DNA of 43,855 nt from Chiloscyllium plagiosum (lineage: Eukaryota). Made by a program: the position numbers and the translations under genes. Positions 1,262-43,716 of this stretch are shown here, piece after piece; position 1 is the stretch's first letter; the number at the start of each line of letters is the position of its first letter. The stretch spans positions 5,018,290 through 5,062,144 of the forward strand of contig NC_057719.1 of NCBI RefSeq assembly GCF_004010195.1, given 5' to 3'. A model generated the notes under the pieces. It did not search any database, was not told the origin of the DNA, and worked only from the letters and a program-made list of their open reading frames with translations.

Positions 1262-1990
1262 CAGAGTCATACATCACGGAAGCAGACCCTTTGGTCCAAC
1301 CAGTCCATGCCGACCATGTTCCCAACTAAACTCACCCCACCTGCCTGTACTTGGCCCATATCCCTCCAAATCTTTCCTATTCATGTACTTATCCAAATAT
1401 CTTTTAACTGTTGTAACCATACCCAGATCCACCACTTCCTCTGACAGTTCATTCTACACACTCTTTGTGGGGGGAAAAAAAGGTTGCCTCTCATGTCCTT
1501 TTTAAAACTTTCTCCTCTCACTTTAGTTTCTCCTCTGCCCCTAGTTTTGAACTCCCCCCATCCTAGAGAAAAAACCTTGCATTTACCTTATCTAAGCCCC
1601 TCATGATTTTAAAAACCTACATAGATCACTCCTCAACCTCATGCTTCAGTGAAAAAAGACCTCAGCCTATCCAACCTCCTCCTTAAGTCTCAAACCCTCA
1701 ATTCCCGGCAACATCCCGGTAAATCTCTTCTGAAGCTTCTCCAGCTTAATAATATCCTTCCTAAAACAGGGCGATGAGAACTGGACACAGTGCTCCAGGA
1801 GAGGCCTCACTAACATCCTGTACAACCTCAACATGACGTCCCAACTCCTATACTCAAAGGTCTGACCAATGAAGGCAAGCCTGCTAAATGCCTCCTTAAC
1901 CCACTATTGACATGTGATGCAAATTTCAAAGAATTATGTACCTGAACCCCTAAGTCTTTCTGTCCTACGACACCACCCAGGGCCTGACCA
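1262..1990 (-). mobile_element. CR1/HER1 LINE 3' fragment
   Basis: Shares the 3' UTR (acagcatggaaacagacccttcggtccaac-type) and ORF2 tail with other copies in the window. Confidence 0.85.
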
Positions 1991-2134
1991 TTAATTGTTT
2001 AAGTCCTGTTGTTTGTTTTACCAACCCTGTTCCCAAAACCATTCAAGCCTGAAAGACACTGCAGAGAAGGGGATAGTGCCAGAGGATTGGAAGGAGAACT
2101 GGAGGGATACTGGTTCTTCGGTTGAAATGACTCC

Positions 2135-2158
2135 GTGTGTGTGTGTGTGTGTGTGTGT
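2135..2158. repeat. (GT)12 microsatellite
   Basis: Read directly from the sequence. Confidence 0.95.
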
Positions 2159-2436
2159 TTTTATTGGCCAATCCTAACTACCCAGAGGGACAGTTAAAAG
2201 TCAGCCACAATGCTATGGATCTGGAGACTTATGTAGGATGGACCAGGTAGGAATAGCAGATTTTCTTCCCTAATGGAGATTCATGAACGGGTGGGTTTTT
2301 TATGACAATCAGCACTGGACACCTGTCAATACCAGATTGTTTGAATTGAATTTTAACTTCAAGTTGGGATTTGAACTGGAAATGTGTTGCTGGAAAAGCG
2401 CAGCAGGTCAGACAGCATCCAGGGAACAGGAGAATC

Positions 2437-2464
2437 GACGTTTCGGGCATAAGCCCTTCTTCAG
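2437..2464 (-). ncRNA. Minimal hammerhead ribozyme core
   Basis: Minus strand: CUGAAGA-A-GGGC-UUAU-GCCC-GAAA-C-GUC; stem I appears disrupted by the junction. Confidence 0.6.
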
Positions 2465-2479
2465 TTGAGGAATCCTCAA

Positions 2480-2507
2480 CTGAAGAAGGGCTTATGCCCG
2501 AAACATC
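2480..2507 (+). ncRNA. Minimal hammerhead ribozyme core (CpG-decayed stem III)
   Basis: CUGAAGA-A-GGGC-UUAU-GCCC-GAAA-C-AUC. Confidence 0.5.
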
Positions 2508-3315
2508 GATTCTCCTGTTCCCTGGATGCTGTCTGACCTGCTGCGCTTTTCCAGCAACACATTTCCAGCTCTGATCTCCAGCATCTGCAGACCTCACTTT
2601 CTCCTCCTTGGGATTTGAACCCATGTTGCCAGAACATTAGCCTGGGGTTCCACAGTTATTAGTGCCAATACCATGAAGATTTGGGTTGAATTGTGAAGAA
2701 TATCTTTACATGAACTGTAAAGGAGTGTTGAGGTTTGTTGTCCATGTTGATTGCATTATCTGGTCATGTACTTCATGTAACTAAATCTACCATACACACA
2801 ATCCTTCCAATCTCCCCTGCACTTTGTTAAACTATACCCCTGTCCTATATCCAAGTGAATGTGCTAAGTTAGGATTTTTCCATGTGCTAAGAATTTAATC
2901 CTCCATCATTGTCATCATTATGTAACCGATGCAATGTTGACTATGAGCATCTATAATAAAGGGATGCTGATTTCTATACTTGCCTCTCAATAGTTCATCT
3001 TCACTTTGAAGTTATGACCCAAGTGCCTGAGTAAATAGAATGCAGCAACTCTGCAGCTGTGCTACGCTTTAGCCTCCTACCATTCTTCCTCATCAAGCCA
3101 TCAGCATAACCCCGCACTCCCTTCATCTCCTGATTTCGTTCCTGATTATTCACCTCAACCACTTCCTGTGGTCACCAGTTCCACATTTGCACAATTATCT
3201 GGGTAGAGAACTTGTTCTCAGTTCCCTATTTGATTTTTTTCTTTTCAGTGAATATTTTGATTAAAGCCTCTAGTTTTGTTCTTTCCCACGAGTGGAAATA
3301 CACAAGCAGCAAGAA

Positions 3316-4305: not shown

Positions 4306-4615
4306 AGGAATTACTCTTCAGAGTTTGCTTTTCATGAGAAAAGAGACCCCGCCCCTTACGATAGGACTGACCTTGGAGTTCTGGTATTGTCCTCATCAGT
4401 CTTTTCTGCACCCTCTCCATGTATCTGAATTAAAGTATGGCTTTTGGAGGTCTGTGTAGTACTCCAAATGCAGAACGAACATCTGCCTTAGGGGTCAGAT
4501 CTGCTCTGTTTTATTTCCTCTTGACCCCTCTGGTTACTGGGTTAGCAGTATGCTCAGTATTGCTCAATTAACTGTTTAACTCCAGACTGACCGAATCTGT
4601 ACATCTCTACCCCAG

Positions 4616-4743
4616 GAACTGGTCCATGAGAAACTGAAGAGCCAACAGATGTCAAATGAATTGGAAAAGCTTAACTATGAATTGGAGAAAATTGGTCTAA
4701 CAAAAGAGCGACTGCTGCAGGAGGAACACAACAGTGATGATAA
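4616..4743 (+). CDS. CCDC88C: CCDC88-family exon: [42 protein letters not shown](N)
   Basis: ccccag|GAA acceptor and AA|gtacga donor; 128 nt, phase 0-2. Matches the Girdin/Daple segment LVxEKLKxQQ..ELEKIGL. Not in the ORF track. Confidence 0.92.
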
Positions 4744-7700
4744 GTACGAGAGCCCCCCTTTCTATTGGAGTGGTTTGATTCCATGATGCATTATTTAGTC
4801 TTTCCTCCATTAGCTGCCACACATAGAATAGTTTGTAGTTAATGGGAAGTGTCGATGAAAACGTAAACAAACGACTTTAGGTTTCGAGTCTCGTAAAAAG
4901 AAATCTAATTGATGAAGGGATTAAGCCCAAAACGTCGACTCTCCTGCTCCTCGGATGCTGCCTGACCGGCTGTGCTTTTCCAGCACCACACTCAACCCTG
5001 AATCGTTATTTGGTCTAACAGTTGTTTACACCATGACATATTACAAGCATATACTTCCTGACTCAACCACAATGTCAGTGCACTCCTCTCCATTTCTTTT
5101 TTGAAGCAACAGTCTGGCTGTGTAATTACACTTCTCCGTGGCCATGTGATTAGAACCCAGTCCTTCTGGCCCCAGGGTTGGAACACTACCATTGTATCAC
5201 AGAACTCTCGAGGAGAACCCCATTTAATGCCCTTCACTACACATCATTAAATATTGTTCATACACAAGTTACACCTGGAACGTATCTGTCAACAAATACT
5301 GAACAGGAATGCCACCTAATATAAGACAGCATTGGAAACTTTTCAAACTGTCAATTTAATGAGAAAGGAACATTGATGTTGATTAGGGTGAAGTGCTACA
5401 CTCTAAGGAAAACTGGAATCAGTGACTGTACCCTTGAACTTACAAAATTTGAATGGGGGGAAAATAGGCAAGAGGTTAGAGACCGAGGTAAATACCATTG
5501 TAAAAGACTTTGCGGTCAGAAAAACATTTTAAAAATGCTAACCAGCTTTAGGATTTATTTCTAGAGGTTTGTTTGAGAATGTGACTAGTTGAACTGATAA
5601 GGGGGATGTCCACTGGGTGGTGTTTAGTTGGACTTTCAGGTTTTTGATCAGGTCTGACACAGGATATTAACCTGTGAAATTAAAGTGCAAGGCACTGAGG
5701 GGTTAGTGTACTGACCTGGACAGAGAACTGGTCAGCACACAGTATTCTAACAGGACTAGACAGGGTGAACACAGGAACATTGTTGCTGATGACCCGGGAG
5801 TCTAGAACCAGGAGCTACAGTCTGAGGATATGGGGTAGACCATTTATGGCCAAGAGGAGGAGAGATCTCTTCACCCAGGGAGTGGGGAGCCTGTGGAATT
5901 CTCTACCACACAGGGTGGCTCAGGCTAGGGCACTGAGTGTTTTCAAGAAGCAATGGGACGTGGTTCTTGAGGCTGGAGGGATTGTGGGGATATGGGGAGA
6001 GAGTGAGAGCAGAGTGCTGACTTGGATGGTCAGCCGTGGGCAGGTTGGGTGGCGGAACAGGCTCGAGGGGCTGAATGGCCTACTTGTGCACCCATTTCCT
6101 ATGTTTCTGTTGCATGTAAACCAGAAGGAATCTATGGAGTCAGTACAGCACCGAGAGAGGCCATGTCAGTTCTCTGGAGTAAATGTTAAGGGCTTTCGAG
6201 GAATATAAAACCAAGAGTTTCTTGTCGGCAGCTGGTGGTGGTGGTGGCCTGGCTGGAGAGGCTGGTTAACCTGATGGGGTCGGTGCAGGAAGGAGTTAAT
6301 GTGGGAAATGCTGAAAAATGTGTTGCTGGAAAAGCGCAGCAGGTCCGGCAGCATCTAAGGAGCCCTTCTTCAGGAAGGGCTCATGCCCAAAACGTCGATC
6401 CTCCTGCTCCTTGGATGCTGCCTGACCTGCTGCACTTTTCCAGCAACACATTTTTCAGCTCTGATCTCCAGCGTCTGCAGTCCTCACTTTCTCCTCCTTA
6501 ACGTGGGAAAGCCTACTTGAGGAGCTCCAATGGGGCAGCTCCAACCTGGGGCTAGAGATAGAATGAAGCAGGAGGTCGATCTCCGGTCAGAGCCTGATTG
6601 AGGGACACGGCGCCAGGAAGTGGGTGACACAGTGGGAATGGGGAGCGTCTGCTGGGAGCTCCCAAACTCTGACCACCCCACCCCCCTAATCCCACTACTC
6701 TCCTACTCTCCCTGCTTCTTCTCACCTACCTCCATCCCATCCCTTGCCTTTATCACAGGGTCATCCCATAGCTCCTCCAACACCTTCCATACCTACAACC
6801 ACTTCCATAAGACCATAAGACATAGGAGCGGAAGTAAGGCTATTCGGCCCATCGAGTCCACTCCGCCATTCAATCATGGCTGATGGGCATTTCAACTCCA
6901 CTTACACGCATTCTCCCCGTAGCCCTTAATTCCTTGTGACATCAAGAATTTATCAATTTCTGCCTTGAAGACGTTTAGCGTCCCAGCCTCCACTGCACTC
7001 TGCGGCAATGAATTCCACAGGCCCACCACACTCTGGCTGAAGAAATGTCTCCGCATTTCTGTTCTGAATTTACCCCCTCTAATTCTAAGGCTGTGTCCAC
7101 GGGTCCTGGTCTCCTCGCCTAACGGAAACAATTTCCTAGCGTCCACCCTGTCAACGCCATCTAGAAGGACAAGGTCAGCAGATATGTGAGAACCCCACCC
7201 CCTGCAAGTTCCCTTCCGAGCCACTCACCCATCCTGACTTGGAAATATATTGCCAGTCCTTCACTGTCACTGGATCAAATTCCTGGAATTTCCTCCCTAA
7301 TGGTAAACCTAGGTCTATATGGACTGCAGCGGTTCAAGAAGGCAGTTCCCACCTTTTTTAGGGGGCGGCTAGGGACGATCAATAAATGCTGGGCCAGGCA
7401 GCGATGCCCACTTCCCATAAGTGAATGTCCATATCAGCACAAACTGCTTTCCAGCTGCCCATGATTTGGGTCAGCCCCATGCCTAGGTCATCTACCCCAG
7501 CAAGTGGTATCAGTGACACAGGGCCCATGGGTTAGTCTGCCTGAGATTGTTGTCCAAGATGTAGCGAACCCTGCCATCTGGTGGCCATGTCACAAACTGA
7601 TCAAGTTCTGCCTCTACAGCATCAAATATTTGAAAGGACTCTGCCAACAGTGAACTTTTCTTGAAGCTTAACATAAATTTACATGTAATTGCACCTTTCG

Positions 7701-13700: not shown

Positions 13701-16700
13701 CATTGGTCTGGAGAATGGTGTCCAGTTGTCAATCAGTTACTTGGTGCTGGCCAAACCTACCTTTGTGTACACACACCTTTTGAAAAAGTGCAGTACTCTT
13801 TACCGCAATCCTTGGTTTTAAGGTCATAAGTTTCAAGAACAAGATAGGCCATTCGGCCCCTCGACCCATTCAATGGGATCCTGACTGATCAGATATTGCT
13901 CACATTCCATTTTCCTCCTCTCTCCTCGTAATCCTCAATTTCCCAACTGATCAAGAAACAAGGTCTCTGCCCCACAGCTGTCTGTGGCAAGGAGTTCCAA
14001 ACACACTCAGCCCTTTCCCATTAGGGATGTGGGGGGGTGGGGCCAATGAGTGCTGAATGTCGCAGTTCCATGTAACAGTCGGTGCTTTGTCACACTGAGC
14101 TTTGGTGCCCCTGGGTGGGGGAGTGATATTCCATATTTACTTTGAATCTTTCTGATTGCAGCTCCTCTTCAGTGTTCATGGAGGGGATGCTCGTAAATTT
14201 CTGGTTGCACCCCGTGTGGAGAGGAATGGGCAGGTCGGAGAGACTCCTCGTCGGCCTGCACCCAGACCTGGCCAAAGTGGCCAATAACAGGCTGGGCAGA
14301 GGCCTAGGGAGGGGCTCATTTGTCTGCCTGCCTGCCCCTTTATTACAGTCACCTCCACGCTCAAGGTGTCCAATGAGAGGGAGCGTGCACCAACACAATA
14401 GAGACCTTTTGAGAACATTGGCACAGCAAGTGTGTCTTCAAACAAGCTAATGTTAATTTGATTTGATAAATTTCCAATCACCGTTTGTAAGGGGGTTAAT
14501 TGTTAGTTTGTATTTTTCTTGCAGTGCCCATCAGCTGCTGTCTAACCTAATTTTGGGTGGTTTAAAAGAATAGAAAGTGCTTCATCCTGGAACACCATGG
14601 GCCAAGGAAATTATTCCCAACAGAAGTAACAACTCGATCACTAAGTCTGAGCCTCCCAGTTGTGTTCCATGCCGAGTCTCGGGCGGCTTCGCTTTGGCTG
14701 TTACTGTGGCTGTAGCACTGACCACTCTAACACCGGACGGCCCTCCCAGATACAATTAACACCCTTCCCTTCCTTTCCAGGTGAAGTGGAATTTCGAAGC
14801 ACTACTGCAACGTCAGGATGAGGAAGGACTGGCCAATAACTCTGTCCCGAAGTGTCCACAGAGCCCCCACCCAGAATTCACGGAGAAAGAGAAGTGGGAG
14901 AAGGAGAACAGGGAGACCACCTTGGAGCTGCTGAAAGTAAAGGACAACATTATTGAGGTGGAGAGGAACGTGAGTGTTTATTTAAAATTCATTCACCGGA
15001 TGTGCGTGTCACTGGCTAGGCCAGAGGGCAGTTAAGAATCAAGCACATTGGTGTGGGTCTGGAGGTCTGGACTCTCGTGTAGGCCAGACTAGGTATGGAT
15101 GGCAGTTTCCTTCCCTAAAGGACCATCAGAGATCCAATTGGGTTCTTCCAGAAATTGAAAATGGATTCATGGCCAGCATTAAATTCTTTATTCCAGACTT
15201 TCTTCTTATTGCTGTTATCTGTCCTGGCAGGATTTGAACCTGGGTCCTCAAAACTTTACCTGGGACTTAGTTAAACTGAGTCCGGATTAACAAGGGGATT
15301 AACAAGTAGAAACCAAAACAACTGCAGATTCTGTAAATCAGAGACAAAAATAGAAATTTCTGGAAAAGCTCGACAGATCTGGCAGCATCTGTGGAGAGAG
15401 AAATATTTTGTCTCTGATTTACAGCATCTGCAGTTTGTTTGGTTTTTATTTGTTAATCCAGAGACAGCCGGGAGGTGACTGCCGAGTGGTAATATTGCTG
15501 GACTGTTAATCCAAAGACAAAAACAGAAATTGCTGGAAAAGCGCAGCAGATCTGGCAGCATCTGTGGAGAGAGACATCAGAGTTAATCAGAACTGAGGAA
15601 GTGTCACTCCACCCGAAACATAAACTCTGATTGATTTAGAGTCCTAGAGATGTACAGCATGGAGACAGACCCTTCGGTCCAACCCGTCCATGCCGACCAG
15701 ATATCCCAACCCAATCTAGTCCCACCTGCCAGCACCCGGCCCATATCCCTCCAAACCCTTCCTATTCGCATACCCATCCAGATGCCTCTTAAATGTTGCA
15801 ATTGTACCATCCTCCACCACTTCCTCTGGCAGCTCATTCCATACATGTACCACCCTCTGCATGAAAAAGTTGCCCCTTGGGTCTCTCTTATACCTTTCTC
15901 TCCACAGATGCTGTCAGACCTGCTGAGCTTTTCCAGCAAATCTGTTTTTGTCTCTGGATTAACAGTACAGCAATATTACCACCCGGCAGTCACCTCTCCA
16001 ATAGGGGCTGCATTTGATGTTTAACGCTGCTGTGGGGAGACAATGTAGAACAGAGGAGAAATCGATCCCCTTAAAAGAGAGAGCTGGAATTGTACAATGC
16101 CTTTTACAACCACTGGGCCTTTTGAAGTATTTTATAGTCCTGAGTACTTTCTCCGTATAGTCACTGTTGTAACATAGGAAATGTGCAGCTAATTTTCACA
16201 CAGATAAGATTAAATCGGTTCCAGACCTGATGATAAAGTATGAAATGAAGCTCATGTCCCTTTCTTAATTTTTAAAATTTATTTTTACAGAATTACAGGG
16301 TCACCTACATCTGCCTCCCACCCACTAACTCGCATAAGGAGTGTTCATACCACAGTTCAATACACTCAACCAACCCGGGAATCCTCCCGACCCCTCCTCA
16401 CAATTCTCCGAAGGAGAAAACTGTGTGTGAGGAAACATATTTCCCTAGTGTCACAGCTTTTAAAAAAATCAGTGAGCTGTCCCTCTTTATATTTTTTCAA
16501 AAACCCATAAGGAGCTAAGAAACAAGTGAACAAATTCACAGGTGACAGCCCCTTAACAGGGCTCTGTAACAAAAAACAGTGTTGAAAGGACTGTTACTAA
16601 ACTACGATGTGGTGGTGGTAGAGGCTGGAGATCAGGGACCATGCAGCACCATCTCCAGGGAACCCACTGGCTGTATGTTGTAATCACTGGAGAAGGGGTG

Positions 16701-22700: not shown

Positions 22701-25700
22701 TGATGACAGGAGAATTTGTACGACGAGCCAAAAGGAAAAGGGAAGTGAACATAAGGTCTAGGCAGCTAAGAACAGAATGGGCCCTGGAGGAATATCGGAA
22801 GAGTAGGATAAGTCTTAAACAAGGACAGAAATGGCTAACACGAGGGGTCATAGTTTTAAGCTGGTTGGAGGAAAGTATAGAGGGGATGTTAGAGGCGGGT
22901 TCTTTACACAGAGATTTGTGAGAGCATGGAATGCGTTGCCAGCAGCAGTTGTGGAAGCAGGGTCATTGGGGACATTTAAGAGACTGCTGGACATGTATAT
23001 GGTCACAGAAATCTGAGAGTGCATACATGAGGATCAGTGGTCGGCACAACATCGTGGGCTGAAGGGCCTGTTCTGTGCTGTACTGTTCTATGTTCTAAGG
23101 AATAAAGCGGGCTAAAAGGGGTCATGAAATAGCTTTAGCAAGCAGAATTAAGGAAAATCCCAAAGCATTTTATTCTTAGGTAAGAAGCAAGCGGGTAACT
23201 AGAGAAAGGATTGGTCCACTAAAAGATAATGAAGGAAGGCTGTGTGCCGAACCTGAGAGAATTCTGAATGATTATTTTGCATCAGTGTTCACTGAGGAGA
23301 GGAATATGATGAATCTTGAGATTAGATAGAAGTTTGATTACTCTGAATCACGGTGGCAAAAGTCGGGAAGATGTGTTGGGTAGGCTAGAGGTTATTAAGG
23401 TGGACAAATCCCCAAGACCGGTTGGGATTAGATTAGATTACTTACAGTGTGGAAACAGGCCCTTCGGCCCAACAAGTCCACACCGACCTGCCGAAGCGCA
23501 ACCCACCCATCCCCTACATTTACCCCTTTAACCTAACACTACGGGCAATTTAGCATGGCCAATTCACCTGACCCGCACATCTTTGGACTGTGGGAGGAAA
23601 CCGGAGCACCCGGAGGAAACCCACGCAGACACGGGGAGAATGTGCAAACTCCACACAGTCAGTCGCCTGAGTCGGGAATTGAACCCAGGTCTCTGGCACT
23701 GTGAGGCAGCAGTGCTAACCACTGTGCCACCGTACCGCCCACTGATCTATCCCAGGTTGCTGAGGGAGGGGAGAGAGAAAATAGCTGGGGCCCTGACAGA
23801 TATCTTTGTGGCATCCTTAAATACAGGTGAGGTGCCAGAGGACTGGAGGGGATAGCTTATGTTGTCCCCCTGTACAAGAAGGGTAGTAGGGATATTCCGG
23901 ATAACTACGGACCAGTGAGCCTGACGTCGGTGATGGGGAAGTTGCTGGAGAGGGTACTGAGGGATAGCGTCTATTTATATTTGGAAAGGAATGAGCTTAT
24001 CAGTGATAGGCAACATGGTTTTGTGCGGGGTAGATCGTGCCTTACCAACTTGATAGAGTTTTTCGAGGAAGTGACCAAGTTGTTAGATGAACGAAGGGCT
24101 GTTGATGTCATATACATGGACTTTAGATAAGGTTCCCCATTGTAGACTAATGGAGAAAGCAAAGTCACATGGTGTGCAGGGTGTTCTAGCAGGTGGATAA
24201 AGAACTGGTTGAGCAACAGGGGACAGAGTAGTAGTTGAAGGGAGTTTTCTCGAAGTGGAGAGAGGTGACCAGTGGTGTTCCACAGGGGTCAGTATTGGGG
24301 CCACTGTTGTTTGTGATATACATAAATGATCTAGAAGAGGGCACTGTTGGTATGATCAGCAAGTTTACAGATGACACAAAGATTGGTGGAGTAGCAGAAA
24401 GCATAAGGGACTGTTAGAGAATACAGGAGGATCTAGATAGACTGGAGAGTTGGATGGCTTTCAATCCAGACAAATGTGAGGTGATGCATTTAGGCAAGTC
24501 TAATTCCAGAGCGAATTATACAATGAATGAAAGAGCCTTGGGAAAAGTTGATGGGCAGAGAGATCTGAGAGTGCAGGCCCATTGTACCCTGAAGGTTGCT
24601 GCACAGGTGGATAGAGTGGTCAAGAAGGCATATAGTATGCTTGCCTTCATTGGACGGGGTATTGAGTATAAGAGCTGGTAAATCATGTTAAATTTGTACA
24701 AGACATTGGTTCGGCCGCATTTAGAATATTGTGTACAGTTCTGGTCACCACATAACCGTCTCTGCAGCCTCCAAAGTGTCCACATTCTTTTGGTAATGAG
24801 GATGTTACCTGGTATGGAAGGTACTCGCTATGAAGAGAGGTTGAGTAGGTCAGATTTATTTTCACTAGAAAAAAGGAGATTGAGGGGGGAGGTTTACAAA
24901 ATCATGAAGGGTATAGAAAGGGTGAATAGAGACCAGCTTTTTCCCAGGGTGAAGGATTCAATAACGAGAGGTCACACTTTCAAGTTGAGAGGTGGAAAGT
25001 TTAAGGGGGATACACGCGGCAAGTACTTCACACAGAGGGTGGTGGGCGTTTGGAACGCGTTGCCAGCAGAGGTGGTAGAGGCAGGCACGGTAGATTCATT
25101 TAAGATGCGTCTGGATAGATGCATGAGTAGGTGGGGAGCAGAGGGATACAAACGCTTAGGAATTGACCAACAGGTTTAGACAGTTGATTTGTATCGGCTC
25201 AGGCTTGGAGGGCCGAAGGTCCTGTTCCTGGGCTGTAAATTTTCTTTGTTCAGAGGAAGGTGTAGAGGAAGGTTCTTTACACAGAGTTGTGAGCGCATGG
25301 AATGCATTGCCAGCAGCAGTGGTGGGAGAGGCAGAGTCATTAGAGATATTTAAGCGACTGCTGGACATGCATATGGACAGCAGTGAATTGAGGGGTGCGT
25401 AGGTTAGGTTATTTTGTTTTAGGGAGAAAGTGAGGACTGGAGATCAGAGCTGAAAATGTGTTACTGGAAAAGCGCAGCAGGTCAGGCAGCATCCAAGGAN
25501 NNNNNNNNNNNNNNNNNNNNNNNNNNNNNNNNNNNNNNNNNNNNNNNNNNNNNNNNNNNNNNNNNNNNNNNNNNNNNNNNNNNNNNNNNNNNNNNNNNNN
25601 NNNNNNNNNNNNNNNNNNNNNNNNNNNNNNNNNNNNNNNNNNNNNNNNNNNNNNNNNNNNNNNNNNNNNNNNNNNNNNNNNNNNNNNNNNNNNNNNNNNN

Positions 25701-28700
25701 NNNNNNNNNNNNNNNNNNNNNNNNNNNNNNNNNNNNNNNNNNNNNNNNNNNNNNNNNNNNNNNNNNNNNNNNNNNNNNNNNNNNNNNNNNNNNGGCCACA
25801 TCGGGTGCAGCGGATACAGTAAATGATGTGTGTGGAGGTGCAGGTGAATTTGTGGCGGATATGGAAGTTTCCCTTGGGGCCTTGGAGGGAGGTGAGGGGG
25901 GAGGTGTGGGCGCAAGTTTTGCATTTCTTGCAGTTGCAGGGGAAGGTGCCGGGAGTGGAGGTTGGGTTGGTGGGGGGGGGTGTGGACCTGATGAAGGAGT
26001 CACGGAGGGAGTGGTCTTTTCGGAACACTGATAGGGGAGGGGAGGGAAATATATTTTATTTTAGATTAGGATTAATCCTCAGCACAACACGGTGGGCTTG
26101 TTCTGTGCTGTACTTTTCTATCTTCTATGTTCTAATTTAATCTAGACAAATGAGACTGCTAAGGTTTAATGCAGGAGGGAAGGAGACATTAAATGGCAGA
26201 GCCCTTGGAAGCACTAACATACAGAGGGATCTAGGCGTACACAGTTCCCTGAAAATGGCAACACAAGTAGATAAGGGGGTCAAGAAGGTAGATGGCATGC
26301 TTGCCTTCATCAGTTGCTACATCGAAGATTAAAAATTGGCAAGCCATGTTGCAGCTATGTAGAACTTTTAGTTAGGCCACATTTGGAATAATGTGTGCAG
26401 TTCTGGTCACCAGGCTAACAGAAGGATGTTCGAGGCTTTGGAGAGGGTACAGAAACAATTTACCAGAATATTGTCTGGTTTTGGAGGGGATTAGCTATGA
26501 GAAGAGATTGGACAAACTTGGTTTGTTTTCACTTGAATGTTGGAGACTGAGGGGTAACCTAACAGAGGTTTATAAAATTATGAGAGGCGTAAATAGAATG
26601 GATAGCTGGAGTCTTTTTCCAGGGATAGAAATGTCAATAGGCAATGTAGGTTTAAGATAAAGGAGAAAAATTTAAAGGAGGTAAGTTTTTTTTTTACAGA
26701 GGCTGTTAAGTGCTTGGAATGTGCTGCCAGAGGAGGTGGTGAAGGTGGATACAGTATCAGTGTTTAAGAAGAATCTTGACAAATTTTTGAGGAGGAAAGG
26801 ATTAGAGGGATTCAGACCACATAGAGGGAAAAGGGTTTTAGTTTGAAAAAGTCGTCATGTATCAGCGCAGAATTGGTGGGCCGAAGGGCCTGTTCTTGTG
26901 CTATACTGGTCTGTATTCTTTATCTTTTACTTTTTCAAACTCCCTAGATTTGAGGAAGGTTCCATTACTTTGGAGAAGTAATTCATTTACTTTAAAACAT
27001 GTGGGGGACAGAAAAGGAAACTGCAGGCTCATTGTCTTAACATTCTCCCAATGAAAGATTTTTTAAAAGCTATTACCAATGAGGTTATCATAAAACAAAG
27101 AACTGCAGATGCTGGAAATCTGAAACAAAATCAGAAGATGCTAGAGAAACACAACAGGTCTGGCAGCATCTGTGGAGAGAAAACAGATTTATTGTTGTGG
27201 GTCCAGTGAGGTTATTAAAGAGTTTGTAGCAGGGACTTGAACAAGTTCAAGGAGGTTAGACAGAAACAATAGGGTTTTGTGGAATGAATATCAATGTTTA
27301 ATCAATCTATTGGAGTTCTTTGAAGAAATAGCACATGCTGTGGTTAAAGGGGATCTGAAGGTATTAGATAAGGTGCCACACCAGAGGTTACTGCAGATAT
27401 TTATCAGACTTTTGAATGGATCTCTTTAATGTTATGTTGATCCCCCTTTCTCTGTAGCTGTAACACTGTATTCCACACTCTGTTCTGCTATCCCTGATGC
27501 ACATTGTGTGGTACGATCTGTCTGCACAGCACGCAAAGCAACACTTCTCACTGTATCTCGGTACATGTGACAGCAATAAAACAAATCAATTTAAATGCTA
27601 ATGGTGTTGAGGAAATCATATTGACCAGGATAGAAGATTGTCTGGCTAACAGGAAGCAGAAATGGGTATTTTTCAGGCTGGCAAGTCGTGTGCCGCAGGG
27701 ATCGGTGCTAGGATGTCAACTGTTTATAAGTGACTTTGTGGAACCATGACGAACACACTCAGGCTCCCCTTTATCCACAGAGCATGGTAATCCTTCAGAG
27801 AATTGCAATGGATTGGTTAAACATTTCCCTTTTGCAAAACCACTCCGACTCTTCCCCATAACCTTGAGTTTTCTCAAGTGTCCAGTTATAATATCCGTAG
27901 TAATTGATCCGAACACCTTCCCCATAACATATATCAAACAAACTGGCTTATAGTTTCCTGTTTACTGCTGCCTTTAATCGCACAGTTATATTTGCTACTA
28001 TCCAATATAAAGGAGCTGTTCTGGAATCAAATAAATTTTGGAAAATGACCAGCGATGCGTCTGCTACCACATTAGGCATCTCTGTTGTAACACTGGCCTT
28101 CAGGATCCAGAGATATATCACTCACATCTCCATCACTTTGTTCAGTACTACCTACCTAGTTCTATTTCTCCCCTTGCCTCCCCAAACCCCCACTCACTCA
28201 TCCTCAATTTTCTTACTTGTCCACCTCCCATCCTCTCCCTCCCTATACCTGGGGTGGCACGGTGGCTCAGTGGTTAGCACTGCTTCCTCACAGTGCCAGG
28301 GACCCAGGCTCGATTACAGCAGTGGGCGACTGTCTGGGTGGAGTTTGCACGTTGTCCCGGTGTCTGTGTGGGTTTCCTCCAGGTACTCTGGTTTCCTCCC
28401 ACAGACCAAGGATGTGCAGGTTCGGTGGATTGGCTATGATAAATTGCCCATAGTGTCCAGGAAGGTGTAGGTTAGCCATGGGGAAATGCAGTATTATACG
28501 GTAAGGGGAGTTGGGTTTGGGTGGGATACTCTTTGGAGAGTAGGTGTGGACTTGATGGACCAGATGGCCTGCTTCCACACTATAGGGATTCAATGATTCT
28601 CTCTGATAATTACACACTCTCCTCTGCTCCACTTAGCCCATTCCCACTTCCTTCTGCTCCAGCCTTTCTGTCCTCCAAACCCAATCCCATGCAACCCTTC

Positions 28701-31700
28701 CCACACCTCCATCCATCCTATCCCATTATGTTTGCAACATTTTCAGCTGTTTCACAGATTGAAGACTGAGAATGTGTCTGAGTTGGTGGAAATTGTTAGG
28801 TTTGAGTGAAATCATGGCCATTCTGCCAATTTTGACTGTGTTTAGTTTTTTGATGGGTGGATCTGGGTTCTTTCAATATCCAAACATATAGAACAATAGA
28901 TGCTTCCTGCTTTAGCTACGGGTCATTGCGTTCTAAAACGATGACAGTTTTAATGCGGACTTTGAAGTGACGGTGGGACATTTTGCTCTGTTGCAGGTGG
29001 AGAATTCGACTTTGAATTCCCAGGGTGCAGCTCTGATGGGTCAGAATGCCACCCTGCAGAACCTGCAGTCCAGCCTGGAGAGCGAGATTGAGAAACTGAC
29101 TCGGCAGAAGGAGGAAATGAAGGCCACCTATGACTCTCTGCTGCAGGATCATGAGCGACTGATGGGGCTGAATGAGCGTCAGTCCACTGAGTGCGAGACA
29201 CTGATCAGTCAACAGGCTGGCCTGAAGGCAGCATACAAGAACCTGGAGTCACAGCATAAAGACCTGGAGCAAAGGTGACACAATCACTGCTCAGAAGATC
29301 CAACGCTGGAATAATTATGTGGTTGTCTTTGACCAGCACAGAAATGATGGGCTGAAAGGCCTTGCTTTTCCATGCTATAGATTTCTGTGATTGTGTGAGG
29401 GTTCTGACTACAAAAAAGCATGTACCCCCTTGGTGTCCCTCCGAGTTTAGAACAATGAGATGTGATTCTTTTACGGTTCTTTCGTAGGGTTTGAATGTCA
29501 CCTGCTGTGGGTCTGGAGTTACCTGGATGCTAGACCAGCCCCTCAGCAAGGGCATTAATGATTGGCTAAAATTCATCAATTTTAGCAGCCTCCATCCAAT
29601 TGCACTGCCAGTGATGATCGGTTATGTTTCTGTTTTTAGCTCGAGCCAAATCGAACCAGATGGGGTTTTTTTTTTTTGCAACAATCAATAATGCTTGTTA
29701 TGGTCACCCATTGCTAACAGTAGCTTTTAATTCCTGAATTTAAATTTTCACCAGCTGCCATACAACCCAGAGGTCTCTATTCTTCCTCCACCCTCTCCCC
29801 CAGCGTTAGCCTGCACCCCTGGATTACCATGATGCTGCACCATTACCACCCAGGGATAATTGATAGGGGAGTTCTGAATGGGACAAAGGAATTCCAGGAA
29901 AACTGAGCACTGTCCACATGACAGAAGGAACTGGGCTTCATTACCAGCTGGTTTCGGAGCAATACCCAACAAAGGTCCGTCAAGTAAAAGCAAAATACCT
30001 CAGATGCTGGAAATCCAAACCAAACACTGAGAATGCTGGAGAAACTCAGCAGATCTCACAGCATCTGAGGGGGGAGAGAGACGGTGTTAATATTTTGAGT
30101 CAGGTATGACTCCTTCAGAGGATCCTGAAGAAAAGCCGTACCAGACTCGCAACGTTACCTCTGTTTCTGCCTCCATAGGCGCTGGCAGACCTGTCGAGTT
30201 TTTCCAGCATTTTCGGTGTTTGTTTCAAAAGACCTTCGGTCTCTGATTGAAAACTTCAGCCATGTCCCCAACAAGTTTTAAACAGGGAGAATGTGTTTAA
30301 GATTATGCAGAGAATTGTTTTCGGATATTTTAGTTCTTAATCAGTCTGCCCCTGGTTGTAGATTCTACTCTGCCATCAGAGCAAATAACTACTGGCTATA
30401 ATTCATCATTTTGAACAAACTCATCCAATTGCACAGTCAATGATGGCCAATTATATTTCTGTTTTTAACTCTAACCAAGTTTATTGAATTTGACTGAAGC
30501 ACTCCTGATTAGCCAGCGTGCCCCTCTCTTTCCCTGTGGCACAGTTTGGGCTGGTTGAGTGTTGGACTGTTTGACCATCTCCTGGTCCTGTCTGTGTCTT
30601 TGTCCCTCCCTTGGGGGTCGCTCCTGGTCTGACGCAGCCATGTGAGCTCTCCCTGCTTTGTGCCTCTCCTTCACAGGTACAGGGGCCTGCTGAAACAGAA
30701 GAGGGAGATGGAGGAGTTGGACTCCACACTGAGAGACCAGCACGAGAGCCTGCAGCGAGAGACCAAGAGGAGTGCAGCCATTGCAGAGGAGAACAGACAG
30801 CTACACACTGACCTGAACAGGTGAGACATCTAGTGACCATAGAGTCATGGGTGAAGGAGGGGACTTAGTGAGGGGGGTGCAGGAGGGGTTGGGGTGTCTG
30901 AATAGAGTGTCTGTCTGTCCGAGACCGGGTCTGCCCAGGAAAGCTATAGCTCAGGCTTAGGACTTGCAAGAATAAGCAAATTTTCTTGATCCTCCTTCAG
31001 TCTACCATTAGGAAACAGGAAGTGTGCTTCCAGAGATGCCATGGGAAACAGTATAAATACTTAGGAACATAGGGACTGGAGTAGACCATTCAGCCCATCG
31101 AATCTGCCCTGCCATTCAATATAATCATTGTTGACAGAACACTTCAGTGCCTTTTACCCACCCCATTCCCATAACCATGTACTCCACTAGTAATCAGAAA
31201 TCTATCAGTCTCTACCTTGAGCAAGTTCTCTTCCCATAGCCTCTGAGCAGCTTTCAAAGTCCTTCAAAGCCGATGGGTAATTTTGAAGCATAGCTAAAGT
31301 TGTGAGCGAGGAATTATAGTAAACTCCAATAAGCAGGATCCCACAAGCTGATGACCAATGTTTGCTAAGTATTGGCCAAGAGACCGGAGAAAGCTCCCCT
31401 ACCCTTCATAATGCTGCCATGGAGTCTTTCATTTCCACCTGAGAGAGCAAACAGGCCTTCAGTGCAGCATCTTATCCAGAAGGTGGCGCCCCTTGACACA
31501 GCAACACACCCTTTGTACACACTCAGAATGTCAGCCTCATTATGTGCCTGAGGAAAGTACCGGATGTAGGAATATACTGTTGAGGTGGGATCGATTGCAA
31601 TGCTGCTTCTCTGGACATGCTGCCTTTCACCCGTAGAACCTTCTAAATATCTACTCGGCCAAGCCTACTACAGATGTTGCAGCAAAATCAGAAACTGCTG

Positions 31701-34700
31701 GAGAAACTCAGCAAATCTGGCAGCATCTGTGGAGAGAGAAACAGTTAACGTTTCAGATTCAGTGACACTAGACTCAAAACGCTGACTCTGCTTTCTCTCC
31801 ATAGATACTGTCAGACCTGCTGGGTTTCACCAGCAGCTTCTGATTTTGTTTTAGATTTCCAGCATCCACAGTTCTTCAATTTACTTTAAGAATTTTGTGT
31901 GTTCAATTGATGGCAGAGTGGGCTTGAGGGTCTGTCTGGCTGACTCCTTTTCTCACGAAGTCTATCCAAGATGCCATTGAGTTGACATGGTCTTACCCTG
32001 GCTGCTTTAGGTTGAACTCAGTGAATGCCCAGTTGAAGGAGGAATATGACGGTCTGCAGACACATATCAAGGAGTTCAAGAGTGCCCTGAACAACACTGA
32101 GCTGGAGCTGACAAGGTGGCAGTCGGAGTACCACGGCTTAAAGGAGCAGCACCAGAACCTGGACATCTCTCATACCAAACTGGACAATCACTGTGAGGTA
32201 CGGGTGGGAGTCATACAACACGGAAACACATCCTTCGGTCCAACTCGTCCATGCCTACCGAGTTTCCCAAACTGAATTTTTATTTATTTTTTGGGATGTG
32301 AGTGTCGCTGACTGGGCCCAGTATTCGTGGCCTGTCCCTAGTTGTCCCTTGAAAAGGTGAAGGTGAGTGCCGTTTTGAACTGCTGCAGTCCATGTGCTGT
32401 GCGTTGACCCACAATGTCCTTAGGGAGGGAATTCCAGGATTTTGACCCAGTGACGGTGAAGGAATGGTGATATATTTTCAAGTCGGGATGGTGAGTGAGT
32501 TGGAGGGGAACTTGCAGGAGGTGGTGTTCCCATGTATTTGCTGCACTTGTCCTTCTAGATGTAAATGGTCATCGGTTTCAGCTTCAGACGACTGACTGTG
32601 TGGAGTTTGCACATTCTCCCCGTGTCTGCATGGGTTTCCTCCAGGTGCTCCAGTTTCCACCCACCGTCCAAAGATGTACAGGTTAGGGTGAATTGGCACT
32701 GAATTGTCTGTAGTGTTCAGAGAGGTGCATGCTGGGTGGATTATCCATGGTAAATGCATGGTTACATGGATAGGAGTCAGGGCTGGTCTGGGTATGGTGC
32801 TGTTCGGAGGACGGGTACGGACTCAATGGGCCAAATGGCCTCTTTCCACACTGTAAGGATCCGATGATTGTCCAGTCTCTCGATGGGATTAAACTACATC
32901 TTTTCAGGGGATTCTTCATTATTTCCTCCTCTGTCAAAGGGTCAGTATTCTTTCTAATCCAAGGTAGGTGCAGTTCACTGTTTAAAAACCCCAGTGTTTT
33001 GCACCTTAAATCATCCCCCTCGGGTCACTTCTGCAATCTTTCATTGTACCCCTCTTAACTTACCCCTCTTATTTTTCTGAACAAATAGATCTTGGAGTGC
33101 AGGTTCATAGTTCCTTGAAAGCAGAGTTGATAGCAGACAAGATAGTGAAGAAGGTATTTGGTATGTTTGCCTCTATTGGTTGGTGCGTTGAGTATAGGAG
33201 TTAGAAGGTCATGTTGCAGCTGTACAAGACATTGGTGAGGCCACTTTTGGAATAATGTGTGCAATTCTTGAAAGGGTACTGAAAAGATTTACAAGTATGT
33301 TGCCAGGGTTGGAGGAAATGAGCCATAGGGAGAGGCTAAATAGGCTAGGGCTGTTTTCCCTGGAGCATCGGAGGGTGAGGGGTGACCTTAGAGGTATATA
33401 AAATCTGAGGGGCATAGATAGGGTAAGTAGACCAAGTCTTTACCTGAGGTGGGGGAGTTCAGAACTAGAGGGTATAGGTTTAGGGTGAGAGGGGAAAGAT
33501 GTAAAAGGGACCTAAGGGGCAATGTTTTCACAGTGGTGGAGGTTGGTACAATTACAACATTTAAAAGGCATTTGGATGGGTATATGAATAGGAAAAGGTT
33601 AAAGAGATATAGGTCAAATGCTGACAAATGGGACTGGATTAATTTAGGATATCTGGTTAGCATGGATGAGTTGGACCGAAGGGTCTATTTCTGTGCTGTA
33701 CATCTGTGACTCTATGACTCCATATCATTGCAAAAAGAGACCTGTTGCTGAAGCTTTCCCTCTCACGATCGTCAGGACACATGCAAGAATACCAAAATTT
33801 CATCCTATCACAACAGTTTCTATTACAGGAGAAAAACTTGTTGATTTGTTGGCAAATTTAGCTAAGGCCTTGCTACAGAAGAAGCAGGGAACTATGGCCC
33901 CTGCTCATCTTCCAGATATTTCAAAACTGGCGCAGTGTTTGCACGTATTCACTTTTCTGCTGTCATCTAAATTGTTGTGACCATTTGAAATTTGGAATTC
34001 TTGCATTTGTGCTGGTAAGTGCAGAGCTAAAAAACAGAAACAAGTTGCTGAAGTTTTGTCAGCAAGATTTGAGGTTTGTATACAGAGCAATCTTCCTTCT
34101 GTTTAAATGTATCCACAGCATTCGCCTCAAACACTTGCACGTTCCCATCTCTCTCACTCTCACGTGTCCCTACCGCCGTTTTGAACCATTTGCGCGCTCA
34201 GTGAAAAAGGTTCAGTTCCCCTCTCACCTGGCAGTCCTCACCTTTTCTCTCTTTGTTTCTCTTCTTGCAAAAGCTGCTGACCCAGCTGAAGGGAAACCTG
34301 GAGGAGGAGAACCACTATTTGCTGAGTCAAGTTCAAATGCTGAATCAGCAGAACCAAAACCTCCTCGAGCAGTCCATGGAGAGCAAGGAACACTACCATG
34401 AAGAGCAGAAGCAGTATATGTGAGTGAAGAGGTCCTTTAATCAGTGGGGGTGTTCGTCATGGCTGTTTGGCCCATCCATCCTGTACTAGATCATAATTAC
34501 AGAATCTCTGTGCTGTTGTATTCAAGTTTATTTTAATTGTATTTTTCTGTGGGGTGCGCAGTTTCTTCCTTAAGGCTGGCATTAGTTGCTCACCTCTCCT
34601 TGCCCTTGAATGAATTGGCTTGCTCGGCCATTTCAGTTACTGTAGGGCTGGAGTCACATGTAGACTAGACCAGGTAAGGACAACAGATTTCCTGCCAAAA

Positions 34701-37700
34701 AATCATTAATGAATTGGTGAGGTTTTACAATAATCGATAATATTTACGTAGGCGCTATCACCAAGTCTTGATTTCAATTCCAGATTTATTAATTGAATTT
34801 TAATTCCACCGGCTGTGATTGTAGGATTTGAACCATGTGCCCAGAGCATTAGTGTGGGCCTTTGGAATTACTGATCATTACTGATCAGTATTACGATTCT
34901 GTTAGCAGAGGGGTTGGCAGTGTCAATACTGAGGGTCTGTTACCACTCTGTGAGAGAATCTGCAATGAGGGCTCAGAGTCTGAGTAAGGGGTCTACTATT
35001 TAGGACTGAAAGAAGGAGCAAATATTTTACTCACACACACAGCCTCTGGATGATCCTACCCCAGAGGCCTCTCTGTGCCTAAGTTGCTCAGTAGAGAGAG
35101 ATGGTGATGTGATGGTAATGTCACTGGACTAGAAATCACGATGTTCAGACTAATACTCTGGAGACATGTTCAATTCCACCATTGGGAAGGCCTATGAATG
35201 CTAGCTAGCCAGTGACGCCCAAGTCCCATGTGAGAATAAAAAACAAAGTAAAGCTGGTGTGATGGATACACCTGGAGTTGAAAACTAGTCTCATTGATGA
35301 CGACCATGAAGCCATTATGGATTGGTATAAAAACCCATCTGGTTCACTAATGCCCTTTGGGGGCTGCAATCTGCTGTCTTTGCCAGTCCTGGCTAACAAG
35401 AGAGTGCAGACCCACTTCAATGTGGTTGACTCTGAAATGTTTAGAGAGAGCCACTCGGTTCAGGTACGGGCAACAAATACTGGCCTGGCCTGGCCAATGA
35501 TGCCCACATCCCATGAAAGAATCAATATTCCAAGACTATGATTGATACATTTTTGGGCTGTAAATGAATCAAAGGATATGGTAGGCCTGTCCAGTTATTT
35601 TTGGAACATCAGCAATTATTGAATGGAAGGGCAAACTCATGGGGCCTTTTCACCTACTCCTGCTCCTGTTTCTTATGATCTGTTTGTGTAACATGGAAGT
35701 TAGAGTAAGTGTAGATGGTAGAATAAAATTACAAAGTGATATTGATAATCTAGATGAATGAGATGGATTTCAGTATCGGTTATCCATTTTGGACAGAGAA
35801 AGGATGGATCACGGTACCTTCTGGATGGTAGCAAGTTTAAGTACAGTTTATGTCGAAGAGACTTGGGGTTCAGGTGCATTGATATTTGAAATGCCATGAA
35901 CAGGTGCAGACAATAATCAAGGATGCTAATAGAACGCTGGCTTTAATATTGAATGGACTGGAGTGAAAGGACGTAGAAGTTGTTCTGCAGTTAGACAAAG
36001 CCCTGGTTTGACCCTACTTGGAGTACTATGAGTAGGTCTGGGCAGCACACTATAGGAAGGAGATGTTTGGCCTGACAGCACCTTCCAAACCCACGACCAC
36101 TTCCATCTAGAAGGACAAGGGCAGCAGATACATGGGAACACCACCCACTGCAAGTTCCCCTCCAAGTCACACACCATCCTGGCTTGGAAAATATCGCCGT
36201 TCCTTCAGTGTGGCTGGGTCAGAATCCTGGAATTCCCTCCCTAAGGGCATTGTGGGTCTACCTATGGCACATGGACTTCAGCGGGTCAAGAAGGCAGCTC
36301 ACCCCCACCTTCTCAAGGGGCAACTAGGGCAATGAATTTTAAAGGAACGTACGTTTACAGGAATGATACCTGGACTTTAGGAGGTAGACACGGACATACA
36401 CAGAGTCACTCTCTGATGCGCATGCAGACAACGACACATACCTGGGGTGTGAAGCTAATGAGGGATTTGGGATGGTTGGTGTGGAGGTGAGGGATGAGTG
36501 GTAAAGCAGTTCCTGCCTTCTCATCTGAGGTGTGGTGATTTCTTCTCTCCCTTCCTTCTCTCCCTTCTTTCCCTTTCTCCCCCCCCCCCCCACACACTCC
36601 CTTATCTCTCCCCCTCTCCCATGAAGGGATGTCTGGGTACACTGGGATCACATTATTGTCCTGTGAGTATATTGGTTGTCGGAAGAGTGCCCTCACTGAA
36701 ATGTCCAAGATTCTGAAGGGGTTGGACAGAATAAATACTGGGCGATTTGGGGCCTTTTCACAGATCTTCCAAGGAGCTAAACAATTAACTCTACACACCA
36801 CAGCCCACACCCTAACCCCACCAACTCTCTTCCCCATCTATTTACTTAGTCCTGAATGGTGACCTTGAGTTGTGGAGATTCTGTTGATGAATTATTGATT
36901 CTCAGAATTGCTCTGGTACAGGAGGAGGCCATTTGGCCCATCATGCCAGTACCATCTCTCTGAGCATTTTGACTTGGTCCCAGTCTCCTTGCCAAATGGC
37001 CGACTGTGGGTCCAAGTACCTATGTTTTTCCCTGTAATCCTGCCCATTGTTTCTATTTAAATTATCATTGAACCCCTCTCCACCACAATTCCAGGCAGTG
37101 CATTCCACACCCAGATCACATGCTGTGCGAGAACATTTTTCCTCCCCCCTTTGCATTTACTACTTTTGCAAATCATTTAAATCTGTGTGGATTCCTGTTC
37201 CTGATCTAGCTGTAAGCGGGGGAAGAAAATCTGCCCACCCGCTCAGAAATTTGAATAGGTTCATGAATAGGAAAGGTTTGGAGGAATATGGGATGAGTTT
37301 AGTTTGGCAACTGGTTGAACTGAAGGGTCTGTTTCCATGCTGCTATGACTCTATACTCTGTCCAGATCCCTCGTGGTTTTGAATGCATGTAAAGTTGGGA
37401 TATCACACTTTTGACTTCCCCACAGGACCAGTGTAGATCGGCAGTGAGGGGGGAGTAAGTGGATTTGAGGCATACATTAGCTCTGATTGAATTGAATGGT
37501 TGAAGAGATGCAAGGGGCTGATTTGTCTACTCCCGCTCCTAGACTCCATACAATGCCTACAGTACGGTAGCAGACCATTCGGCCTATTGAGTCCACACTG
37601 ACCCTCTGAAGCACATCTCATCCAGACCCCCTACCTTATAACTCTGCATTTCCCATGCTAATTGCTAATCTACACATCCCTCCAAAGGCTAATTCTCCTA

Positions 37701-41482: not shown

Positions 41483-43716
41483 TCAATAGTATACAGGTTT
41501 CACTGCATATAAATGGTTCATAAATATGGGATGGTTTTTAATAAGGGGTCAGTTGCAATGCAGTGAATGTTGCCCCTAAAGCTGCCTGTCTTGTGCCCTC
41601 CTTTCACCAAGCCCTTCAGTGGGTTGTGTGTGTGCCTTCGGATCATCCGTTTGCCCTGGCCCATTCTGTTGGTCTGCCGCATTTTGTTGTGCCCCCCCCC
41701 TGCATTTCCCTCCCTCTGCCTCTGTCACAGTTTCTCAGCAGCTGCCCATCTCTCAGACGAGCCTATCCCTCAGTGTTTCACCCCTGACCCCACTCAGCTG
41801 ATCTCAACATTAAAAAATTGAAGTGCCAAAATTCTCTTTGTTGGCCACTCTTTGTTTCCAGCAGCGAGTTAATGGTGAAGCTCCATGCGCTGGATGACAA
41901 CTAGCTCCAGACAGCCTTTCTTTAAGAAGATCATTCAGGAGGTGTGGGCCTGGCTGACAATGCTGACGTTTATTTCCCATCCCTAGTTGCCCCTGAGAGG
42001 GTGGTCATAGGCCATTGCCTTGAGCCAGGGTGGAAGAAATTTACTCCGCGATGACCATATTTCGAAGTGACGTGTGAGTGTGTGAGTGTGATGTTCCCCT
42101 GGGATAGCTACCCATGTTCTGATTGATTGTGGTAGTGTGTTTCATTGTATATCTTACGCATCTGCCGACTTCCCGTTGATATTCAGGGGACATTCCGCAG
42201 TGGGATTAGTGTGCAGCTACCAGAGGTTTCAGCTTCACAGTGAGGCTTGTACTGAGGGAGGCCACTTCTATCACATTCAGGGAGATATGACAGCCCAACA
42301 AGGAGGGATCGGGAAGGATTTTGATTATTCCCCTGTGGCTGAGGGGAATGCTGAAGGAAAGTGGGCATTCATCAAATCCGGGCATGAGCTGAGCCTTCCT
42401 GCCAAATCCTTCTATACACGCACACAGGCATACACACACAGCCCCTCCACAATGAACCAGACTATTACCAATAATCATGTACTAAGATCCTGGCCGCAGA
42501 GATAACTGCTTTAACAGTGTATGAAAAGGTGACCAGCACCTGTCAAATCCTACATCAGCAACAAGGATGGAGATGCAAGGCTTTTTGTCCCTTGTTTATG
42601 GATCTTTAATAATTTAAATCTTTGTCTTTGTTTAATCTGCTCACCGCTTCCAGTCCTTGTGCTGTTTTTGAGTATTGCTTATTGTGTACAGTAGCTGAAC
42701 TAGACTTCAGAAGGATTTTTTAATATACATTGTGCATTTAAAAAAACTTGAGGCATTATGTGATTGACAATCCGTATCTGTGCAATATTTTATACATCTT
42801 TCATCTGAATGCACTTCTTTTCCCATTCTATGTTCCCATTTACAATGGAAATAACCAATGCAAATTGGTCAGGCTGTAATTAGACCCTCCTATATGAGAG
42901 GCACTACAGCAGTACATGCAACATTATAAATTCATTGGAATTTATAACTAATACTATGTAAGACCATTACAAAGATTTATGCTGACATGTTCTGTTCTAA
43001 GAATTTAATCCACTCAGTCTTTCACATGAACATCCACATTTTCTTTGAAGTGTCAGATATTGTGTTCCTGCAGCATCCCAAACCCCTTCAGCTTAGTCTG
43101 AAACCTCAGAAAAATGACTTTAATTTCATTTCCTACAATTAAAAGAAATCGGGTTTTTTAAAAATATTTTTGACCAATCTGTTATTTGCAGCAGGACCAG
43201 AAGGTACCAGCAGGTGGCCTCTGTAATCCATTTTACGCACTGATCTTTTTAAAAACCTATTTTGTGAAATATGCAGCGTGCAGAATATGCAATATTTATC
43301 CTGTCTTCTTCCCATAATTTTAATCATCTGTCTGTTCTCCTGGAGCTGATCCACAACACAATAACTTGGCAATGCGTACATTCCTCATGGAGTGAGTGCC
43401 AGCAAGAAGCACTTCACCTCTAAGGAGATCCCACTCCCACAGACTCTTCTAATTTCTTTTTGTCCTTGCACAGGTGTCACTGACTAGGCCACCTTTTGTT
43501 GCCCATCCATAATTAGATTAGAACTGAGCTTCCTGATAGGCCAAGTCAGAGGGCTGTTAAGAATCAACACCATTGCTGTGGCTCTGAAGGTATGTCTGGG
43601 CCAGATCAGGCCAATGTTGGTTCCATGGTCACCATTGGCAGATTAGCTTTTAATGCCATAGTGGGATTTGAGCCCATGTCCCCAGTACATTGGCCTGGAC
43701 TCTATAAACTAAACTG

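Follow-up and report, generated by a model that had tools for sequence, protein, structure and literature searches.

How does a near-perfect palindrome carrying two hammerhead ribozyme cores, one on each strand, come to lie inside a shark gene, and does it do anything there? Positions 2364–2620 of the 43,855-nucleotide stretch of Chiloscyllium plagiosum DNA analyzed here (the window) raise this question. A first-pass annotation, made from the sequence alone, treated the segment as a special non-coding unit. In our analysis, it is instead very probably a single, fairly recent, dead-on-arrival pLTR insertion of a Neptune-type, endonuclease-bearing (EN+) Penelope-like element (PLE), located in an old SINE-like repeat within a Daple/CCDC88C intron, i.e., a routine insertion of a very abundant family.

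Geometry of the Insertion and Its Empty Site

The two arms, 95 nt each (2376–2470 and 2474–2568), are reverse complements around the loop AAT with a sole mismatch (2439 versus 2505), and the A2471–T2473 pair extends the DNA palindrome to 96 bp, leaving 2472 as the lone central base. Comparison of the arms and alignment with other copies divide the 244-bp fold-back insert into an inverted, tail-less pLTR arm on the minus strand (2376–2472), a direct pLTR arm on the plus strand (2473–2568), and a plus-strand Penelope ‘tail’ of 39 nt (2569–2607), found only on the direct arm. The tail represents the 3′ end of the family, marked by loose ends at 2603–2606 in four of four runs. A perfect 13-nt direct repeat flanks the unit as a target site duplication (TSD): its left copy (2364–2376) shares its last base, 2376, with the inverted arm, and its identical right copy (2608–2620) falls within the part of the host repeat that forms its B-box-like head. 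The near-perfect fold-back and the perfect 13-bp TSD of the first-pass annotation are both confirmed in the window sequence; its anatomy of arms, loop, and TSD was right and omitted the tail. The fold energy of the fold-back is −208.3 kcal/mol (z −28.66), and none of 200 shuffles was equally stable.

Four of 24 sequencing runs were compared with window positions 1950–3300. A 499-nt contig of organism C (run X12, record 2) joins 2231–2363 to 2608–2910 gap-free; it is the empty site with a single copy of the duplication, and it supplies, in one contig, the insertion-free ortholog that had been proposed as a check in related sharks. A contig of organism B (run X9, record 17) also ends at 2363, with its remaining 39 letters not listed, and gives no more than a hint of an empty site. 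None of the listed contigs and reads of organism A spans the central junction, so the palindrome itself is without read confirmation.

The insertion splits an older SINE-like repeat on the minus strand, with approximate limits of 2170–2680 drawn from copy alignment and from raised depth on both flanks. These flanks align unbroken across the insertion point with other repeats of the window (64% to 34648–34858; 78% to 43648–43698), and a minus-strand motif resembling a tRNA B-box is common to the host repeat and the other window copies. From this motif and general knowledge, we take the host repeat to be a SINE, in line with the earlier placement of the unit inside one. A (TG)n microsatellite occupies 2126–2168, ~200 bp upstream of the insertion. 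Ten tblastn matches to Daple/CCDC88C of sharks lie on the plus strand between 4592 and 39399, covering about residues 903–1472 of a carpet-shark protein. The first exon match of the window (4592–4747, tblastn limits) lies downstream of the fold-back; since these plus-strand matches begin at about residue 903, we infer that the insertion is intronic, with the upstream exon outside the window, which agrees with the location in a host pre-mRNA assumed previously.

Family Identity and Related Copies

The insert is the terminal repeat (pLTR end) of an endonuclease-bearing PLE, probably of Neptune type. Complex insertions of EN+ PLEs are described as combining an inverted pLTR, a 31-bp tail, a TSD, and junction palindromes (PMC3846280), and an inverted, 5′-truncated pLTR with a 30–40-bp tail and TSD is called typical in the available text of PMC8557442. 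The fold-back shares with these insertions the head-to-head pLTRs, a short TSD, a palindromic junction, and a one-sided tail within the 30–40-bp range (39 nt here, 38 nt in a second copy at 6296–6510). It differs in comprising only the last 135 nt with no ORF, in having arms equal within 1 nt, and in the length of its TSD (13 bp versus 8–10 bp in the rotifer examples given in the available parts of PMC3846280 and PMC8557442).

Four further copies in the window, at 4907, 6296, 25410, and 38494, belong to the same family or close subfamilies. A longer, 5′-truncated copy on the minus strand (25410–26064) contains an RT-EN linker with Cx4CxxC followed by the first part of the endonuclease region and then, beyond a gap of 294 N, the same pLTR end; the sole link between coding piece and pLTR across the gap is a 13-bp TSD (one mismatch). 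This gap, the only one in the window, spans 25500–25793. Upstream of it, the copy encodes an 87-aa peptide with Cx4CxxC, of which the best five of seven relatives are shark or eukaryote proteins with 55–68% identity, three of the five being named from Rhincodon and Chiloscyllium. A Pfam search with the 87-aa peptide itself returned no family; its relative P0002 clears the cut-off for Pfam GIY-YIG, with an RT match that stays below threshold, and the Cx4CxxC linker is found in P0001, P0002, and P0003. It is through the relatives of this peptide, and across the N gap, that an element with RT plus a GIY-YIG domain at the C terminus is connected to the pLTR. A CX2-5CxxC linker between RT and EN marks Neptune and Nematis (PMC8557442, available text); the Neptune-type assignment draws on the linker motif, which is common to Nematis, and on the host range. 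The Penelope-like origin with an inverted 5′ piece, already suspected in the first-pass annotation, is thus upheld by the pLTR match, the tail, and the RT/GIY-YIG link at 25410–26064.

The copy at 6296–6510 is a second fold-back of the same family on the plus strand, with a 13-bp TSD (one mismatch), a 38-nt tail, and a decayed core. Its inverted arm stops within 1 nt of the same place as in the 2364–2620 unit, and both of its arms have an extra T of their own in common; its centre, a 3-nt overlap with a 5-nt loop, differs from that at 2472. Its inverted arm is also short of ~27 nt at 6354–6355, spanning stem II up to the cleavage site and flanked by short letter repeats. A TSD search of the five same-family copies found 13 bp in all three with a flanking duplication and nothing convincing at 4907 and 38594. 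The search found a 9-bp duplication at 27080/27207 and none convincing for the four fold-backs of a related but older family, whose stem II is longer and which lie at about 15296, 15495, 30018, and 31683 (15290–15465, 15495–15990, 29980–30240, and 31670–31890). The one at 15495 is interrupted by a ~258-bp piece of another repeat (15641–15898).

Outside the window, the insert is a high-copy repeat, matching tens of thousands of contigs per run: 48,432, 29,350, and 36,171 contigs in three DNA-type runs, a count that is not copy number. Depth in these runs is concentrated on 2364–2639. The 15 joints listed of 318 each connect left arm to right arm at varied positions, as other head-to-head copies would. 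Two metagenome scans gave first no match and then 43 loci, rejected as chance (longest BLAST match to the arm, 32 nt), and a bacterial promoter/terminator scan, irrelevant for eukaryotic sequence, gave none. In the literature covered, mainly open-access main texts, we found no paper devoted to this shark Penelope family.

Mechanism of Integration

The origin of inverted PLE structures is still called open in the available text of PMC8557442, and among the sources covered, mainly open-access main texts, we found no two-primer model for PLE inversions. On balance, we lean towards an origin from two target-primed cDNAs made on one template and then joined. In this scheme, the GIY-YIG endonuclease would cut both target strands 13 nt apart. 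Each target 3′ end would then prime cDNA synthesis from an element RNA, the same for both or a sister copy, with one start at the end of the tail and the other 39 nt inside. Both cDNAs would stop upstream of the hammerhead core, at a distance of 9–10 family bases, before being joined end to end, the hammerhead being a passenger.

Three features of the insert bear on this scheme. The centre is blunt: measured from the core against the loose-end consensus, family sequence extends as far as −10 in the left arm, and the right arm begins at −9. Minority family letters are common to both arms (2412/2532 and 2379/2565), as is the same change upstream of the core, and the tail is one-sided. Together, these features fit the priming of one RNA by both target ends. 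Other window copies, a small and decayed sample, also start within ~10 nt of the core start, which fits a defined template end. A more explicit version, which we advance tentatively and at a little less than even confidence, is that a dimeric RT-endonuclease primes both ends on one RNA, with start sites a tail-length apart, run-off at a defined 5′ end of the RNA ~10 nt upstream of the hammerhead, and blunt joining. At the target 3′ end (2373–2376), three of four letters agree with what the family has past the inverted arm, a possible priming microhomology.

A biochemical precedent has been reported for a PLE protein, namely cutting and extension at both strands of the target and two RT start sites that bound the tail (PMC11167929). 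The Anolis Poseidon element PAc of that study resembles the shark family in that a hammerhead lies near the pLTR end and two element ends, separated by the length of a tail, come after it; it differs in belonging to the Poseidon clade and in coding for protein. Cleavage by the PAc hammerhead depended on the element protein, insertion did not need this hammerhead, and inverted products are not described in the available text.

The same element could also have acquired its mirror arm by fold-back self-priming of a cDNA or by later arm-to-arm repair, an alternative that we consider somewhat less likely. It would directly explain the near-equal arms and the shared variants, it is how junction palindromes are read in the available text of PMC3846280, and the 3-nt overlap and 5-nt loop at the centre of the 6296 copy speak for it. 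However, the centre at 2472 is one unpaired base with no templated loop, and the tail cannot come from a plus-strand fold-back. A minus-strand fold-back would have to halt 38–39 nt short in both window copies, a stop that better matches the two RT start sites reported in PMC11167929.

Hammerhead Cores

A relaxed minimal-hammerhead descriptor, run over the 43.9-kb window and 200 shuffles, matched the window exactly twice, at 2480(+) and 2464(−); one site appeared in 6 of the 200 shuffles and two sites in none. The minus-strand core (2437–2464) has both boxes, a 4-bp stem II, and the palindromic ACGU of stem III intact, and reads GUC. The core on the plus strand, the strand of the host gene (2480–2507), also retains boxes and stem II, reads AUC, and has ACAU at stem III (A at 2505, where the family letter is G). 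The palindromic 15.1-16.1 for a dimer stem III is accordingly present in the minus core and lost from the plus core. Both cores have the extra base before a G-C-closed stem II, and the first description of them as minimal type I hammerheads holds. The one in the host pre-mRNA is without the ACGU palindrome; and because each strand carries a single core, dimer formation between them in cis is impossible.

Stem I is unpaired in both cores, with none of five positions pairing. Its disruption had been recognized and placed at the junction; it stems not from truncation there but from a short change upstream of the core, where the family reads CATTC (loose ends behind 2464 in 301, 222, and 152 contigs and in 292 RNA reads) and both arms read CAA. 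Even in the family, stem I appears weak, with three of the first five positions pairing in the copy at 38594. Rfam hammerhead models, one of the checks suggested in the first-pass annotation, gave no match up to E 10 nor at the gathering score in four scans, and matches to Rfam miRNA precursors, hairpin-driven and below the gathering score, were rejected. For stem II, 12 decayed window segments were aligned; the older family has, by eye, a different 5-bp stem.

Minimal hammerheads (min-HHRs) are known from metazoan PLE pLTRs, and in Schistosoma, dual motifs lie on opposite strands 100–700 bp apart (PMC4209133, available text). Both opposite-strand minimal hammerheads and the layout of inverted pLTR, tail, and TSD are thus already published. 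The cores described here share with min-HHRs the CUGANGA and GAAA boxes, the extra base before stem II, the G10.1-C11.1 pair, and, in the minus core, the palindromic 15.2-16.2; they differ in a stem II of only 4 bp, the absence of stem I, and their separation by 15 bp. Sharks are not mentioned in the available text of that account. A second 4-nt palindrome, UCGA (2506–2509), spans the cleavage site and overlaps that of stem III. Duplex folding favors the UCGA register, so those energies were left out as evidence on stem III, and this register might compete with the active dimer.

The prediction that the hairpin would mask the core was borne out in silico: the computed probability of stem II, 0.93–1.0 for each arm taken alone, falls to 0.0 on both strands once the whole unit is folded, and in computed folds, plus-strand prefixes close up from the centre while the core is emerging. 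Whichever strand is read through, transcription would reach the antisense arm first, and that arm would capture the core on its emergence, so that no self-cleavage is expected from this copy. The ribozyme motifs, as modeled, look damaged and masked rather than functional. Intact PLE minimal hammerheads have weak activity (PMC4209133), and cutting by a PLE hammerhead requires the element protein (PMC11167929), according to the available texts.

Function, Mobility, and Authenticity of the Unit

Through the insertion, the intron would have acquired a 96-bp hairpin. Long intronic hairpins are generic ADAR substrates, and processing of this one by ADAR or Dicer is plausible by analogy. Within the RNA run, 97% of the matching reads continue into other loci and the unique flanks have almost no depth, and therefore there is no locus-specific RNA signal either way. 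We do not take the A>G difference at 2505 in RNA run X21 (151 of 251 reads) for editing, because G is the family letter and 97% of those reads run into other loci. No position where many molecules begin or end was seen in ~2% of a polyA single-cell run, a result uninformative on cleavage. That the unit works, either as a dsRNA in the intron that serves ADAR or small-RNA machinery and affects Daple or as a conditional ribozyme, is suggested by such a near-perfect hairpin in the inferred intron of a plus-strand gene and by what is generally known of ADAR substrates. We consider it very unlikely: the unit is absent from organism C and hence not conserved, the identity of the arms is explained by youth, the lone mismatch looks like CpG decay, and stem I is missing in both cores.

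Hardly any credence attaches to the idea that the insert, compact, non-coding, TSD-bounded, and with inverted ends, is a palindromic mini-element in its own right, non-autonomous, resembling a MITE or a retrozyme, and mobile as a unit. Non-LTR retrozymes are likewise short, non-coding, and pLTR-derived, carry a type I hammerhead, and occur in vertebrates, one chondrichthyan among them (bioRxiv 10.64898/2026.07.22.740005, available text). They differ in forming head-to-tail tandems that permit dimer cleavage, whereas the fold-back is head-to-head, and no tandem array with a hammerhead in each unit is found here. Moreover, no common centre is seen, either in the two same-family fold-backs or in the 15 listed of 318 joints, and the same end is joined to coding sequence at 25410–26064. 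Least probable of all is a fold-back chimera of assembly, for which the lack of a centre-spanning record among those listed and the N gap inside another family copy could be cited, since the inversion halts at element boundaries, the tail is one-sided, the TSD is perfect, the arms contain one mismatch, and the organism C flanks meet at exactly the insertion ends.

Implications

As a single locus, the fold-back is of little weight, since dead copies like it are very numerous; taken together, hairpins of this kind in introns could be a large source of nuclear dsRNA in sharks. What the locus offers is a clean case of the geometry of a Penelope insertion, with TSD, empty site, tail, blunt centre, and shared arm variants in one place. 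If the model of two primed ends on one RNA is true, the centre of a fold-back would map the transcription start of the element rather than the cut site of its ribozyme, and the model could be tested on the very large natural data set that shark genomes would then provide.
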